This document shows, piece after piece, positions 695 through 8,146 of a stretch of DNA of 16,007 bases (position 1 is its first letter; the number at the start of each line of letters is the position of its first letter). Below the pieces are notes generated by a model. That model did not search any database and was not told where the DNA came from. It was given only the letters and a program-made list of their open reading frames with translations. The DNA lies in NCBI GenBank assembly GCA_964493715.1, contig CAZBPC010000076.1:1-16007 (forward strand), in the 5' to 3' direction. Source of the stretch: an uncultured archaeon. GTDB taxonomy: Archaea > Asgardarchaeota > Lokiarchaeia > Sigyniarchaeales > SOKP01. Both the position numbers and the translations under genes were made by a program.

Positions 695-1318
695 TTAGAG
701 ACAATGTTTTATCATCTTCTTTAATTTATCAAGGTTCTCCTTATTCAAAGCAGAAAATTCTATGAATGGTATTCTTGAATTATTTCCTTTGAAGAATTGA
801 TCAAGGTGCGTGAGTTCCAATCCGAATTCTTCAGCAGACTTCAAAAATAGGTTGATATTCTTGGTTCTATCGAAATTTGATACTTTATCAATTTTGTTTA
901 AAATGATTAATAGAGGAATATCAAATTCTTTAAGGAATTTTATTAATTCAAGACTTAGTGGTATTGTGTGTTTATTCTCAATAAAATATTTCTGAATTTC
1001 ATCTTCAATTCTTAAGATATTAAGCACGATGAAACACAAAAAATAATCCTTATGATGCTTCTCTATATGTACAACAATTTGTTTCTTTACATGTTCTGCC
1101 CTTCTATGACTTGAATGACTCATGTAACCAAATCCAGGTAAATCTATAACTTGAAATTTCATATTAAGTTGAGTTATTGGTCTAATTAATAAAGTACTTC
1201 CGGGAGATTTTCCACTTTTCCCTTTGAATTTGCGTGGGTTGGATAGAAGTAATCGTGTAATTGAACTTTTACCAACATTAGAGTTTCCGATGATCAATAA
1301 TGATGGTTTTTGCGTCAT
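695..1318 (-). CDS. engB: EngB/YihA (YsxC) family GTP-binding protein
   Basis: G1 GNSNVGKSS, G2 PGST, G3 DLPGFG, G4 NKID, G5 FSAL. The start is placed at ATG 1318 (MTQKPSLLIIG, 207 aa) because the ORF-track start at 1378 overlaps the upstream gene. Confidence 0.85.
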   Translation of the reverse strand: MTQKPSLLIIGNSNVGKSSITRLLLSNPRKFKGKSGKSPGSTLLIRPITQLNMKFQVIDLPGFGYMSHSSHRRAEHVKKQIVVHIEKHHKDYFLCFIVLNILRIEDEIQKYFIENKHTIPLSLELIKFLKEFDIPLLIILNKIDKVSNFDRTKNINLFLKSAEEFGLELTHLDQFFKGNNSRIPFIEFSALNKENLDKLKKMIKHCL

Positions 1319-1340
1319 AATAAAATAAAGTAAAAGAGAT

Positions 1341-3146: not shown

Positions 3147-5460
3147 TTACGATTTCTTGTATAAAAATCTCTCCCAACTTGCACTTTTTGGCATTTCTAG
3201 AGCCATTCCCTTCCGTTTTCGAATTTCCATAATCAGGTCTTCTTCGATGCTTCCAGGAACCTTTTCAAACCCTAAGAATTCGTATCCGAAAAATGCTCTC
3301 CCTTGAGTTGATCCTCTGATCTCATCAGCAATTCCTATTAATTCTGCTGCGGGAAGTTGTCCTTGAACACGCACGTATTCTCCTTCAGGTATCACGTTTA
3401 GGACTCTACCTCTGTGTTTATTGATAATTCCTAATACACCTGATTCTGTTCCTTGTGGTGTTTTAACGTCTATTTTCTGAACTGGTTCAAATAAATGTGG
3501 TTTAGCACTTAACATTGCCATAGAAAAAGCAGAGAAGCTCATACTAGCAATTTGATTGTATCCTGTATGTGCGGGATCTTCGTGAATGGTTAAATCAGTA
3601 AAAACGACTTTTATACCGGCAGCGGGTTCTTTTGCTAATATAGCGCCCTCTAGCCATTCTCTAAATGCTGCAGATAAATAAGATTTGATCCTATCAAACC
3701 TTTGGAGTCCGGTAGTACCATTAACTAACAGATTTCCATTGTACACATCAACAATTCGGCGTGCTTCTTTGGCATCCCATCCTGCTTCTTCACGTAATAT
3801 TTTTGCTTTGGTTTTATCATCCATCAATTCGTTGATACCTCCTCTTTCTATTAACGTTTCTGTTGTTTCATCAAGAGGTTCCATGTACATAAGCATTCTG
3901 TTATGACTATTAGAGGATTTGGTATGAAATTCCTTGCTTTTTGTTGTAATCTTTTCCCTGTAAACGATAATAGGTTCTCCAATATCAATTTTTACTTGAT
4001 TGTTAATACGCTTGGTGAGGATATCAATTTGAAGTGGATCAATGCCAGAGAGAATGTATTCCATTGATTCTTTATCAAGACGGAATTTTGCTGTTGGATC
4101 AGCTTGGAGCCATTTTCCAACTACATCTCCAAGTTTTGCTATATCATGTGGATCTTGTGCTTTAATGCTTCGTGATACTACTGCTTCACAAGCATAGCTA
4201 ATTTTTTCAAATGATGGAAGCGCTGCTTGTGCTTCTTTATCTCTTGGTACATCATTAGCATTTAAAAATGTTTCACCAGAGGGACAAATAAAACCATAAA
4301 TTGCGAATAAATTTCCCGCGGGAATTTTTTCAACATCTAATATATCGGTGATTTCCATCACTCCAAGTCGTTTAACTCTATTTGACGTTCTACTGCCAAC
4401 TAAATAAATTGAGTCTGTATGATGAAATGTACCAGAAAATACTCTACCAATAAGGGTTGCTTGATAATTCTTCTTTGGATCAAGAAAAATTTTAGTAATC
4501 ATTCCATAGAGAGGGCCATTAGGATCACTTGCTACAAGAGCTTTCCCTAAATCAGAATCCAAGTCTCCACCCCAAATGTGGGGAATTCGATATTTTGCAG
4601 CAGCTGTTGGGTTGGGTAGATGATCTACAACCATTCTCAACATTGGTTCATCTAATGGAAGATTATCACGTAACCATTGAATATTTCCTTCATTATATTT
4701 TTGAAACACATCTTGAGGTTTTAATCCTTTTTCAAGTAAGATTTCATAAGTGAAACCCCAACCGTGTTTAGCTGAACCTACAGCAACGCTATTCTTTGAA
4801 AAATCGACGCCCCAATCTGAACCTTCAGGACGAATTTTTTTAATTAAATCATTTACTTGCATTGAAATTTTATCAATTTTTTCAAATGTTGCTTGAGGAG
4901 TGAGTTTTAGTTCACTTATTAAGCGATCCACCTTGTTAATAAATAACACGGGCTTACAATACTCTTCTCCTACAGCAAGTCTAATATTTGTCTCAGTTTG
5001 TGTCATGACACCTTCAAGAGCATCAACTAAAATAATAGCACCATCAGAACCCCGAAGGGCTCGTGAAACTTCTCCCGTAAATGAGATATGTCCGGGTGTA
5101 TCATTAATCTGGAAGATATAGGGCTCTTTGTCTTCAGGTGTTCGCGAGTCTTCGAATGAAAGCAAAACAACAGACGTGAAGATTGTGATTCCTCTGGCTT
5201 GCTCCTCTTCTTTCAGTAAAATAAGTAATTCTTATTCTAAATCTGAATCAGTCATTTGGAGCTGACCAGCATCTTCTTCTCTCATTAAACCAGCGCGACG
5301 CAAGAGATAATCTGAAGCTGTAGTCTTCCCATGCTCTAGTTTAGAGACTAATTGTCCTTTAAATATCTATGTGGGCGACTATAGAAAAGATTCTCTTTTT
5401 TTCAAAGTTCGTACTTGTTACCATGCGGGCGATATCTTCAGGGTTTTTTACTTTAACCAT
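3147..5460 (-). CDS. Archaeal elongation factor 2 family GTPase, probably the aEF-2 paralogue. Spliced: complement(join(3147..5210,5241..5333,5365..5460)), 750 aa
   Basis: Exon 1 encodes MVKVKNPEDIARMVTSTNFEKKRIFSIVAHID. Exon 2 encodes HGKTTASDYLLRRAGLMREEDAGQLQMTDSD. Exon 3 encodes EEEQARGITIFTSVVLLSF...DTPGH...NKVDR...GSAKHGWG...GRVFSGT...HEDPAHTG...IRKRKG. The ORF-track entry (3147..5165) lacks G1 and G2. Confidence 0.92.
5211..5240 (-). other. Candidate BHB-type mRNA intron 2 (30 nt) in the EF-2 switch-I region
   Basis: Minus-strand sequence TTAGAATAAGAATTACTTATTTTACTGAAA lies between TDSD and EEEQARGITI, with an in-frame TAA at 5232-5234. Fold: perfect 4-bp central helix TCAG/CTGA; bulges AT|T and AA|G; 9-bp intron stem TAGAATAAG/CTTATTTTA (one G-U); loop AATTA; distal exon stem CTGGT/GCCAG plus GCTCC/GGAGC. 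Confidence 0.88.
5334..5364 (-). other. Candidate BHB/BHL-type mRNA intron 1 (31 nt) in the EF-2 G1 motif
   Basis: Minus-strand sequence ATTTAAAGGACAATTAGTCTCTAAACTAGAG lies between the GAT (D) and CAT (H) codons of AHIDHGKT. It shifts the frame and has an in-frame TAA at 5359-5361. Fold: exon stem TAGTC/GACTA plus CCCA/TGGG; central helix ATAG/CTAG (3 of 4 bp); bulges AT|A and AG|C; intron stem TTTA/TAAA plus GGAC/GTCT; loop AATTA. Confidence 0.85.
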
Positions 5461-5466
5461 ATATAC

Positions 5467-5523
5467 TTCACTTTTTATATTATATTATATAATTCTAATG
5501 TTATGAATATAAAGAGAAGTGAA
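5467..5523 (-). promoter_or_regulatory. Putative EF-2 promoter: TATA-like TTATATAA (5485-5492) flanked by an inverted repeat
   Basis: TTATATAA is centred about 28 nt upstream of ATG 5460. The arms are TTCACTT-TTTATATT (5467-5481) and AATATAAA-gag-AAGTGAA (5506-5523). The AT-rich context lowers significance. Confidence 0.35.
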
Positions 5524-5608
5524 TGAAATCATAAAAATTTTGTGTAAATAGGTGATAAATTGAAATGGGATTATTTTCCATTTTATTTTTATTATTAAGA
5601 AAAGGATT

Positions 5609-8146
5609 TTATAAGATCGTCCGCATATCATATTTTGGCATTATTTCATAAAATTCTGCTTGTTGTTTTAATGACCAAAATCTAGGGGCATATCCATATT
5701 TTAGAGCAGCTTTAATCATCATTCCTATACCGATATAGTTTCTCTTTTCAATTTCATTGCTAAAATTTGTAATATGACTTGTAATTCCCAAATTTGGATT
5801 TACCTCTTTCATTACCCATAATAAATTATCTGGATCATTATTAGTTTTATCAAAATCGATATGATGCAACTCCCAAACAGATCGCCCACTCTTGTACTTT
5901 TTATCTCTTCTATATATATTTCCTGTGAAAGCGTCAAACATATATTCCAATTGAGTTAGTGAATTTTTAGTGTTTCTACTTTTTTTTACAAAACCCTGCA
6001 GAGAAAATACTTGTTCTCCAAGGATGCCATCCCTTTTTTTAGACCAGTCGGAGGAATGTTTAGAATTTACATTACCATATAGCTCTAAAGATTTTCTTTT
6101 TAGGTAAGAATTATAATCAGGATATTGACTTTTAATTTCATTAACTCTATCAATTTTTTGATACACCCTAATATATGTTAAAATATCAGAATATGCTTTT
6201 TTATCAATTTTAGCTAATTTATCATTTAATATCCTAGAAATTTTTATGAAATCTCTGGGATAAAAAACTCTGTATAATTGATTTTCTCTATCGCTTAGTT
6301 TTGGCTCAATATCTATTCCAAAAAATTCAGTTAATTCATTAATGGTGGGATATTCACTTCTCCAGCCCTCTGATATCTTTAGTTTTCCTAATGCATTGAT
6401 TAAATTATCTACTAGTTTGTGTTCTTTATATTTGATAAACGATTTCTCAACAGCAATTATAAAGATACCAGAGAATCGTGCTAATGCAATAATCATACTG
6501 TCGATAAATTTTCTATCTTCTTTATTCAAAATATTTTGATTACAATAGTTTCTAATCCGTTTAAGGGTATTTTTACTTAAATCATTCCTAAAATAATATT
6601 TTGTTACTAATCCTATTGATCCATCTCCAAGAATTTCTTGCCCAATTTCAGAGAGGCTTACAAATCGATTATATTTGTTAGAAATTACTCTCTGTAATGC
6701 TTTAAATAAAATCCAGTTGGGTTTATTTTGAACATCTTTATAAGTCAAGTAATTAATTCCTAATACATTACTAGAATAATCCTTGATTTTCATCAGAATA
6801 TCTTTACGTTTATTAATATCTATTTCCATTTTATCTATTTGAAGAAAATAATCGAAAAGCATTTCAATTTTAGTTGGATGGAATGCTACTTCACTATAAG
6901 GTACACTTTTTAATTTTTGATCACTCATTCTTCGCGTAAATTCAGATCGCCCAAATTTATAGATTCCATTTTTATATGTATCAATGAATTTAGCTAATTG
7001 TGCTGCCCATGACCATTTTCCTTTATAGTTGAAGATAATAGTTTCTAATTTTTTTTCTAACTTATTTTCATATATCATATTATAAAGTTCATCCCAGGTT
7101 GAATTTACATTCTGTCTCTTCGTTATAATATGATTTTCAATTAATATTTCTCTAAGGGCGTTAGCCGGTAGAGTTTTTATTAATTGTGGAATATGAACAT
7201 TAGCCATATTAATTATTAATTTTTGGTGCTCTGTATATTCATCTATTTTAAACTCCACCTTTCTTATACGATTAACAGTATTGTTACAATTCATTATAAG
7301 TTCTTCAATATCCGATTTAGTAAATTTTTTGGTTAATCCATTTGAAAAGAAATCGAAATAAGCATTAAATCGATCAAAAGCTGTAATTTTTTGAGTAGCG
7401 TTTTCTCTTTTTTTAGTCGAATATCCAAGAACACACATGCATATTCCCATATTAAGGATAGAATCGTAAAGCGTCTTAATTTTAGAGAGAGAAATTTCTT
7501 GAGTGTTTCCAAATGAAAAAATCTCTTTTTCCGCTAGTTTATATTTTTCTAACCAGTCAGAAAGTATCTTTTTTAACTTAGGAGATGGTGGGTTAAGCAC
7601 TATAAGATCATTAAATACTTCGTGGTGGATTTTGAGATGTTTAAGCAATCGTGTGTACTGTTTTGTTATTTCTTGAATACCATCTTTAATAACCTGAAAT
7701 TTTTTAATTTTCTCAGATTTAATATCGTTTTTTAGAAATGTTAGTTGTTTTTTAGATAATTGTTTAAGATATGAATTGGAAATTGAATCTATATACTTTG
7801 AAATGATTGGAGCACCTCTTCCAGTTGTAATACAATATACCCACTTTCTAATGAAGGATTCAGTTTCTTTAGGGATTTCTTTTTTAATAGTAGAAAGCAA
7901 ATCATGAGAAGGTAAGCAAGAAATATCAAATAGACAAGAGAGAGCAGCATCTACAAAATCTACAATTCTTTCATCAACATAGACCATTGGGATTTGATGT
8001 ATTTTGCATTTTGGATATTTACCAAATCCCAGAAATCCAAGTTTCAATGGTTTGACTCTAATTATTTTTTCACATCCAAAATTAGGACAGATTGCTATTC
8101 GATCCTCCTCTACAGTTTTCCGACTTGCAATAGAACACGACTTCAT
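5609..8146 (-). CDS. Large protein with an N-terminal putative Zn-binding module and a C-terminal HNH endonuclease motif
   Basis: N-terminal CPNFGC...YPKCKIH. C-terminal WELHHIDFDKTNNDPDNLLWV...SH at about 5775-5875 matches the HHID-x4-NN-xxxNL HNH signature. Length 845 aa. Confidence 0.7.
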   Translation of the reverse strand: MKSCSIASRKTVEEDRIAICPNFGCEKIIRVKPLKLGFLGFGKYPKCKIHQIPMVYVDERIVDFVDAALSCLFDISCLPSHDLLSTIKKEIPKETESFIRKWVYCITTGRGAPIISKYIDSISNSYLKQLSKKQLTFLKNDIKSEKIKKFQVIKDGIQEITKQYTRLLKHLKIHHEVFNDLIVLNPPSPKLKKILSDWLEKYKLAEKEIFSFGNTQEISLSKIKTLYDSILNMGICMCVLGYSTKKRENATQKITAFDRFNAYFDFFSNGLTKKFTKSDIEELIMNCNNTVNRIRKVEFKIDEYTEHQKLIINMANVHIPQLIKTLPANALREILIENHIITKRQNVNSTWDELYNMIYENKLEKKLETIIFNYKGKWSWAAQLAKFIDTYKNGIYKFGRSEFTRRMSDQKLKSVPYSEVAFHPTKIEMLFDYFLQIDKMEIDINKRKDILMKIKDYSSNVLGINYLTYKDVQNKPNWILFKALQRVISNKYNRFVSLSEIGQEILGDGSIGLVTKYYFRNDLSKNTLKRIRNYCNQNILNKEDRKFIDSMIIALARFSGIFIIAVEKSFIKYKEHKLVDNLINALGKLKISEGWRSEYPTINELTEFFGIDIEPKLSDRENQLYRVFYPRDFIKISRILNDKLAKIDKKAYSDILTYIRVYQKIDRVNEIKSQYPDYNSYLKRKSLELYGNVNSKHSSDWSKKRDGILGEQVFSLQGFVKKSRNTKNSLTQLEYMFDAFTGNIYRRDKKYKSGRSVWELHHIDFDKTNNDPDNLLWVMKEVNPNLGITSHITNFSNEIEKRNYIGIGMMIKAALKYGYAPRFWSLKQQAEFYEIMPKYDMRTIL

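Follow-up and report, generated by a model that had tools for sequence, protein, structure and literature searches.

In Archaea, removal of an intron from a pre-mRNA is known from cbf5 of Desulfurococcales and Sulfolobales (Watanabe 2002; Yoshinari 2006; Yokobori 2009, PMC2738675), and as of 2009, according to the part of PMC2738675 considered here, confirmed splicing of archaeal protein genes was limited to cbf5 of some Crenarchaeota. Non-canonical introns are also known in the tRNA genes of Thermoproteales and Asgard archaea (parts of PMC5829648, PMC11291895 and bioRxiv 10.64898/2026.10.13.758758). The same parts of these three texts make no mention of protein-coding hosts; the bioRxiv text does not use the term 'mRNA' (0 occurrences) and has 'protein-coding' a single time, with a different meaning. 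Here we describe a 31-nt insert (intron 1) that splits the P-loop codons of an archaeal elongation factor 2 (aEF-2) gene in an uncultured Lokiarchaeia archaeon of the Asgardarchaeota (assembly GCA_964493715.1, 3.68 Mb, 31% GC, 160 contigs, rated 100% complete). The gene lies in a 16,007-bp stretch of DNA, the window, which is the entire contig C76 (CAZBPC010000076.1), and it carries another, in-frame insert (intron 2). We consider it highly probable that intron 1 is a genuine pre-mRNA intron of the archaeal bulge-helix-bulge (BHB, tRNA-type) class, with a relaxed motif, spliced by the endonuclease EndA and the ligase RtcB. The evidence directly in hand is the presence of the insert in DNA, the exact exon joint in contigs from RNA libraries, its uniqueness among orthologues, the geometry of its boundaries and the genes for the enzymes.

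Similar to the cbf5 intron, as far as the cited parts describe it, intron 1 is short, lies in a protein gene and has an unconventional or relaxed BHB, of the kind that in cbf5 is cut by a hetero-oligomeric EndA; it is likewise patchy among related species, with lineage-specific gain or loss, and misleads gene callers. It differs from cbf5 in that the organism is an Asgard archaeon and not a crenarchaeote, the host gene is aEF-2 with the insert in its P-loop, two introns occur in one gene, and at least six further genes of this genome carry similar mini-introns. The kind of evidence also differs, consisting here of metatranscriptome contigs and not of reverse-transcription PCR or in vitro cleavage. 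With the non-canonical tRNA introns, as described in the parts cited, intron 1 shares the recognition motif, presumably the enzymes, a similar size and repeated lineage-specific gains, but its host is an mRNA, the exon half of the motif consists of codons and splicing must restore the frame. We judge the mechanism to be already known from cbf5, and the lineage (Asgard) and the genes to be new. Within the open literature (taken without supplements, reference lists and subscription journals) we found BHB introns reported neither for protein-coding genes of Asgard archaea nor for EF-2, and no confirmed archaeal protein-gene splicing beyond cbf5 after 2009. A short frame-changing mRNA intron is also removed without the spliceosome from HAC1 and XBP1, where stem-loops define the cuts and a tRNA ligase seals the exons (RtcB in metazoa). 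The role of RtcB in XBP1 splicing is treated in part of PMC8718801. Intron 1 resembles these introns in being short and frame-changing and in having its cut sites set by RNA stem-loops, whereas the nuclease there is IRE1 and not the tRNA splicing endonuclease, and XBP1/HAC1 splicing is a regulated stress switch.

The interrupted gene has archaeal neighbours in the window, a CCA-adding enzyme and aIF5B, and its parts are listed in Table 1. From its ATG, the frame of exon 1 reads MVKV...SIVAHID and runs into intron 1, where a frameshift and a stop end it as an open reading frame (ORF) of only 33 aa (5359..5460), the short product that a reading of the sequence made without database searches (the sequence-only reading) had given for unspliced RNA. 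Past intron 1, the frame HGKTTASDYLL... ends at a TAA within intron 2, and in a domain search the 672-aa open frame at 3147-5165 carries GTP_EFTU, EFG_III, EFG_IV and EFG_C. Read on the minus strand, the 31 nt of the insert (from 5364 to 5334) separate ...CAC ATA GAT from CAT GGG AAG. Among the 31-nt excisions, that of 5334-5364 alone restores Asp-His (IDHG); a shift of 1 nt to the left gives Glu-His and of 1 nt to the right Asp-Asn, as the sequence-only reading had also found. The insert thus has the properties of a cbf5-type pre-mRNA intron: it lies inside a coding sequence, it breaks the frame, and its removal restores the AHID-HGKT of all orthologues.

The top NCBIfam model for the interrupted gene is aEF-2 (561.7 bits). 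The cut-off of TIGR00490 is 738, and both an uninterrupted orthologue (L061, 621.8 bits) and the second EF-2 family gene of this genome (635 bits) score under it. This second copy, on C1, encodes 729 aa, is 32% identical to the interrupted gene and has an intact P-loop. A domain-IV loop of the HEDPAHTG type is present in the interrupted gene and is not evident in the C1 paralogue. According to the part of Narrowe et al. 2018 (PMC6143161) considered here, the majority of Asgard genomes carry a bona fide aEF-2 together with a divergent paralogue (aEF-2p) that is without the diphthamide-loop residues, and the two genes fit such a pair, the loop being seen in the interrupted one alone. The interrupted gene is therefore probably the bona fide aEF-2 translocase of the organism.

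At least part of the stretch is found in twenty public sequencing runs, of which two are metatranscriptomes, and ten DNA runs contain at least half of its sampled words. We mapped the contigs of two RNA runs (X19 and X20) and of two DNA runs from different studies (X1 and X8) on positions 4500-5600. The sole joint among all these contigs leads from 5333 to 5365 and skips 31 nt. It is found in one contig of X19 (5279-5333 + 5365-5461, sides of at least 55 nt) and in one of X20 (5257-5333 + 5365-5438, sides of at least 74 nt), each with 0 other letters and with 0 shared letters of microhomology at the joint. The DNA contigs of X1 (5139-5419) and X8 (5159-5336 and 5312-5481) run through the insert with 0 differences. 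No joined (insert-free) contig was found in these two DNA runs, which is weak evidence, since Logan contigs drop rare variants. The joint of the RNA contigs coincides, at the contig level, with the predicted relaxed-BHB cleavage positions, and the junction mapped in this way falls between GAT and CAT, where the sequence-only reading had placed it. None of the X19 and X20 contigs reaches intron 2, and we draw no conclusion from this. The contigs of X1 DNA and X19 RNA also show a population variant that replaces the sequence from 5461 onward (plus strand), just upstream of the EF-2 start.

The predicted fold of intron 1 contains every element that the sequence-only reading had named. The 5' bulge AU↓A (5366-5364; the arrow marks the cut) is closed on both sides, and the 3' bulge AG↓C (5335-5333) is followed by a C.A exon pair, giving a 2x5 internal loop. 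Between them, the central helix (5370-5367/5339-5336) has an A.G mismatch and the pairs U-A, A-U and G-C, the inner stems are UUUA/UAAA (5363-5360/5343-5340) and GGAC/GUCU (5357-5354/5348-5345), and the closing stem is supplied by the exon codons (UAGUC/GACUA, 5381-5377/5325-5321; CCCA/UGGG, 5375-5372/5331-5328). Each cut falls 2 nt to the 3' side of the central helix, the spacing found in BHB substrates. Intron 1 falls outside the strict canonical BHB (hBHBh') and within the relaxed forms (hBH/BHL), in which at least one proper bulge stands beside the central helix and the other cut lies in a loop at the symmetric position, following the definitions in the introduction of PMC5829648.

Because the junction is fixed independently by the orthologue alignment and the RNA contigs, the structure could be tested at a single position. 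Intron 1 has a BHB score of 10/12 (central helix H 3, inner stem h2 4, h1 3). As a null we took the ORF-joining combinations of position and length across the genome and counted those with a score of at least 10/12, H of at least 3 and h2 of at least 3; 2,289 of 1,296,047 combinations (0.18%) score as well as intron 1. All nine exon positions of the closing stem are complementary here (9/9), compared with a mean of 4.84 (sd 1.30, maximum 8) in the 62 distinct uninterrupted junction contexts of insert-free orthologues. This excess indicates either that the site was predisposed to form a stem or that the exon codons have adapted to the intron, or both. The window contains no Rfam family at gathering thresholds and no tRNA by ARAGORN.

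The genes of the host agree with a splicing machinery of the appropriate type. Two EndA-family genes are present, on C5 and C58. The C5 protein (207 aa) has its nearest matches among the alpha subunits of crenarchaeal heterotetramers (3p1z_B, E = 1e-36), keeps the Tyr/His/Lys residues and is aligned across the N-terminal loop, where, by a count on the alignment, one of its Lys residues corresponds to K44 of A. pernix; K44 and the L1/Crenarchaea-specific loop are described in the part of PMC5829648 considered here. The C58 protein (205 aa) has Ser at the position of the catalytic His and looks like a structural, beta-like subunit. Judged from these genes, the EndA of the host would be of the two-subunit, broad-specificity type, with subunit assembly predicted, which is the type that the sequence-only reading had associated with relaxed motifs. 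A ligase of the RtcB type, which seals 2',3'-cyclic phosphate to 5'-OH ends, is also encoded (PF01139, 484.5 and 54.2 bits on C2). ARAGORN finds 27 tRNA genes in the genome, 12 of them with introns, and by its numbering 8 of these 12 are off position 37, so that the non-canonical tRNA introns for which the sequence-only reading had suggested looking are present. Several of the tRNA introns are 29-30 nt long and begin with ATTT.

We infer that EndA cuts intron 1 and RtcB joins its exons, and likewise that splicing is efficient. In the pre-mRNA, the closing stem would arise between the codons for ...IVAH in exon 1 and those for HGKTT in exon 2, the 3-bp central helix plus the A.G mismatch between the Ile-Asp codons and the 3' end of the intron, and the inner helix from the intron's own hairpin. 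The two-subunit EndA would then make one cut after U5365, within the 5' bulge, and another after G5334, within the opened 3' bulge or internal loop, and RtcB would seal GAU to CAU, restoring AHID-HGKT and the reading frame; without splicing, the 33-aa peptide would be the only product. Most likely intron 1 has no function of its own and is a neutral or selfish insertion.

A DNA search across 41 genomes, consisting of this one and 40 relatives, gave matches in 30, and in many matched genomes the three exon pieces directly adjoin one another. We aligned the interrupted gene with 16 orthologous loci, leaving out the partial matches L017, L021 and L022. Intron 1 is present in 0/16 of these orthologues, all of which read AHIDHGKT unbroken. 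Among 58 named orthologue loci, 3 are without the 5' region, and 53 of the 55 informative ones are uninterrupted at the intron 1 site; the two genome sets overlap, and their counts are not additive. The nearest relatives, L061 and L069 (91% protein identity), are without both intron 1 and intron 2. The remaining two of the 55 loci, L043 and L067, carry a different 30-nt insert 6 nt (two codons) upstream, between the His and Ile codons. On these alignments intron 1 is specific to one species, and the P-loop coding region has been hit independently in other species. Two further cases of extra length among the orthologues were rejected as introns, neither being BHB-like: that of L043 (3717-3845) is a duplicated C-terminal fragment downstream of the gene, and that of L074 (1980-2083) is a local duplication in which 25 residues are matched twice (177 nt extra).

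Several observations weigh against splicing of intron 1 and have to be set beside this evidence. The RNA support comes from assembled contigs of low depth (3.5 and 2) and not from raw reads, the RNA contigs derive from samples other than those of the DNA runs, and RNA libraries can contain DNA. On the upstream side of the start, the X19 contig continues with 17 nt of a variant sequence found in X1 DNA as well; because this variant differs from the window, the contig comes from a slightly different haplotype. There is also no unspliced RNA contig over intron 1 in X19 or X20 and thus no precursor-product pair, from which we draw no conclusion, and no sequence relative of intron 1, from which covariation could be read, occurs at its site in the orthologues. 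The motif is relaxed, with only 3 pairs in the central helix and the 3' bulge between A.G and C.A. The fold of 5310-5390, which the sequence-only reading had proposed to check, has an ordinary stability in RNAfold (z = -0.80; 39/200 shuffles fold as well). Its minimum free energy structure (-13.9 kcal/mol) keeps the closing and inner helices and omits the 3-bp central helix, and the explicit hand-drawn BHB fold (-12.4 kcal/mol) lies 1.5 kcal/mol above it. The modelled energies are therefore compatible with the BHB fold, which is not thermodynamically favoured, and have no diagnostic value; on balance the check is neutral, RNAfold being a weak test for a BHB.

The main caveat that follows from these points is an insert-free allele as the source of the RNA contigs, to which we give a small chance. 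A recent 31-nt insertion would then have inactivated this copy of aEF-2, and the RNA contigs would come from a co-occurring strain without the insert, with nothing spliced. The upstream variant shared by X19 RNA and X1 DNA speaks for this, as does a second strain in X1, in which 9/157, 11/119 and 15/220 positions differ on three contigs within the EF-2 gene; the insert is species-specific, and the loss of rare variants from Logan contigs means that the missing joined DNA contig weighs little. However, the form found in X1 and X8 is the insert-bearing one, without differences and without a joined counterpart, in a survey where ten DNA runs hold at least half of the sampled words. The other 672 codons of the gene are intact, and the only paralogue is 32% identical to it and without the domain-IV loop. 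The boundaries of the insert match the BHB cleavage geometry, which would be rare by chance, a second stop-containing insert is present in the same gene and, with covariation, in 14 other named loci, and at least six other genes, including RtcB and uS8, have the same kind of insert. We therefore regard an inactivating insertion as unlikely.

It is less probable still that reverse transcriptase or the assembler skipped a hairpin and produced a false deletion in both RNA contigs, the gene being rescued otherwise or not at all. The skipped segment is itself a hairpin and the contig depth is low, but the joint is identical in two runs and exactly restores a universally conserved series of codons. 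Template switching normally needs microhomology, and its absence at the joint argues against such an event. Rescue by translational bypassing was rejected on the sequence: a matched pair of take-off and landing codons is known from phage T4 gene 60, and here no codon at the landing point corresponds to the GAT before the insert. Reassignment of a stop codon would not rescue the gene either, because 31 nt shift the frame. We consider it equally improbable that the excision is real and takes place at the RNA level through a nuclease and ligase pair other than EndA and RtcB. Such enzymes could be invoked because the motif is not a canonical BHB, but both cuts have the spacing from the central helix that BHB substrates have, a broad-specificity EndA type is encoded, and the genome has tRNA introns that match intron 1 in size and 5' sequence; features of group I or group II introns are impossible in 31 nt, and the Rfam search was blank. 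Excision of intron 1 as a BHB intron by EndA and RtcB remains the reading that we prefer.

Inserts of the same kind interrupt other genes of this genome (Table 1). The RtcB gene itself is found in two pieces in a Pfam search (profile positions 1-47 and 48-426), and the central helix of its insert is a perfect 4 bp. The insert is kept in the closest relative (G001) with 1 change, is precisely absent at the sequence level in G022, G006 and G007, and is absent by length arithmetic in the other same-genus matches that span the site. With blastn-short, the three inserts (introns 1 and 2 and that of RtcB) have no further copy in the genome, the best partial match being 15/15 nt with E = 0.053.

To extend this, we made a partial census by tblastn of six-frame ORFs of at least 90 aa from G038, a complete relative of another family, against this genome, covering 2.8 of 4.32 Mb (65%) of this one distant reference with 1,992 + 1,393 ORFs. 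The census gave 17 candidate interruptions and found intron 2 again as a control. Six candidates fit a BHB at junctions set by the protein alignment alone, where the decoy maxima are 3-7, and nine score 3-7. Including that of RtcB, the inserts in these genes are 29-39 nt long. In the census set, the 5' bulges are mostly A(A/U)↓(A/U), several inserts begin with ATTT and have an AATT(A) loop, and the junctions sit within conserved motifs. Pfam searches with the separate exon fragments give profile coordinates that run on across the inserts or flank them, with proteasome alpha at 1-98 and 101-188, Ras at 1-58 and 60-160, and Ribosomal_S8 at 2-43 and 93-126; VWA_CoxE is matched on the first fragment only, and the 15-aa first exon of the GHMP kinase was not in the Pfam submission. 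The remaining candidates were not counted as introns. That at C105:~6025-6182 is a run of Ns with a duplicated flank inside a gene, an assembly-gap artefact, and that on C10 (363-375 nt) has no BHB; those on C1, C39, C20, C53, C69, C2:119238, C41 and C8 have BHB scores of 3-7 and may be neighbouring genes that are fused in the reference, and C2:89105 was likewise left as a candidate. A scan of the genome by structure only (BHB plus ORF joining) gave 2,289 combinations compared with 2,170-2,299 for shifted-geometry decoys; we dropped it as a census because it showed no excess over the decoys and recovered only intron 2 of the three known inserts.

Table 1. Parts of the interrupted aEF-2 gene (positions in the window) and inserts in orthologous loci and in other genes (contig positions; G000 is this genome)
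Feature	Position	Strand	Description
Exon 1	5365..5460	minus	ATG at 5460; 32 codons, ending ...AHID; aligns with the N-terminus of all orthologues
Intron 1, 31 nt	5334..5364	minus	Between the P-loop Asp (5367-5365) and His (5333-5331) codons of aEF-2
Exon 2	5241..5333	minus	31 codons, HGKTT...TDSD
Intron 2, 30 nt, in frame, TAA stop	5211..5240	minus	Perfect central helix (UCAG/CUGA); bulges AU↓U and AA↓G; inner stem of 9 bp
Exon 3	3147..5210	minus	Remaining aEF-2: rest of G domain, domains II-V; stop codon 3147-3149
Predicted relaxed BHB motif of intron 1, whole	5321..5381	minus	Pair list and energies in the text
Unrelated P-loop insert, 30 nt	L043:~1330-1359; L067:~1300-1329		Canonical-looking BHB, drawn by hand: GCGC/GCGU, bulges AU↓C and AA↓A, 9-bp inner stem
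RtcB insert, 29 nt	G000 C2:12136-12164 (L023/L090)	minus	Between ...GGVGY and DINCG...; helix UUGG/CCAA, bulges AU↓A and AG↓A
Proteasome alpha insert, 31 nt	G000 C4:20109-20139		BHB score 8
Ribosomal protein uS8 insert	G000 C26:4049-4077		BHB score 8
GHMP (mevalonate-type) kinase insert	G000 C21:19953-19982		BHB score 10
VWA/CoxE-like insert	G000 C28:34412-34441		BHB score 10
Ras-family GTPase insert	G000 C6:80447-80476		BHB score 9; 4 with another reference ORF that places the junction elsewhere
V4R-like protein insert	G000 C13:42940-42978		BHB score 10
Coiled-coil protein insert	G000 C89:3340-3369		Doubtful and not counted: central helix 4/4, inner stem only 2 bp

Intron 1 appears to belong to a set of mini-introns of about 30 nt in coding genes of this genome, with the insert in proteasome alpha as its closest look-alike. 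By manual count the two match at 21/31 positions; both start with ATTT, share the core ACAATTAGT and place a purine-purine mismatch outermost in the central helix. Their alignment score is 11, compared with a null of -3.9 +/- 3.0, and 0/500 shuffles score as high. The proteasome insert is also found in G015, where the stem is different yet complementary and the AAUUA loop is the same; in G022 and G001 the sequence itself shows its absence, and in most other same-genus matches the length does. The inserts in uS8, the GHMP kinase and the VWA gene resemble one another.

We tentatively suggest, as a possibility that falls somewhat short of even chances, that a mobile family of BHB mini-introns of about 30 nt colonises the tRNA genes of Lokiarchaeia-type Asgard archaea and conserved motifs in their core protein genes, and that intron 1 is one of its recent copies. 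The members of such a family would have a length of 29-31 nt, a hairpin core with 5' AUUU... and the loop AAUU(A), and at the 3' end four nucleotides complementary to the exon directly before the insertion site. Such complementarity would fit an origin of new copies by reverse splicing or by another RNA-guided route of that sort.

Intron 2 is less restricted in its distribution, as a homologue of 30 nt is present in 14 other named loci out of 58. On the 15 sequences, 92% of the positions in the BHB model are paired, and sliding the partners lowers this to 33-50%. The central helix does not vary; in the inner stem, two pairs are compensatory, with both partners substituted, and 0/500 shuffles attain the covariation score. 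At or near the same site, L057 has a 30-nt insert (~1426-1455) whose sequence is unrelated to the intron 2 family.

These results place a tRNA-type intron in the catalytic P-loop of an Asgard translation translocase, with RNA-level support for the exact joint, and they point to the archaeal lineage nearest to eukaryotes as one in which some protein genes are split and depend on RNA splicing. Gene callers will label such essential genes as truncated, as frameshifted or as pseudogenes in Asgard metagenome-assembled genomes, and estimates of completeness and gene content will be skewed. If a mobile family exists, the translocase, the proteasome, the RNA ligase and a ribosomal protein would be made only with splicing by EndA and RtcB, the mRNA of RtcB would need RtcB in a self-referential loop, and protein genes that are split and require RNA splicing would already be part of life in the prokaryotes most closely related to eukaryotes. 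The system is small (a 31-nt substrate, a two-subunit EndA and RtcB), so that a direct in vitro test is feasible. Very recent gains, with intron 1 in one species and the RtcB intron in two, open the origin and spread of introns to study, and the wider mini-intron pattern of this genome merits a dedicated study.

Two further observations concern coding sequences outside the interrupted gene. In-frame TGA codons are aligned to Cys of the relative's proteins at C39:17922 and 17370, C74:14712 and 14160, and C59:6057 and 5508 (472-534 bits), and a tRNA-SeC gene lies at C26:15797-15889; the genes on C39, C74 and C59 probably encode selenoproteins. Directly upstream of the EF-2 gene in the window lies an 845-aa ORF (5609-8146, minus strand), whose only family match is a weak one to the HNH_3 endonuclease near its C-terminus (22.8 bits, under the cut-off).

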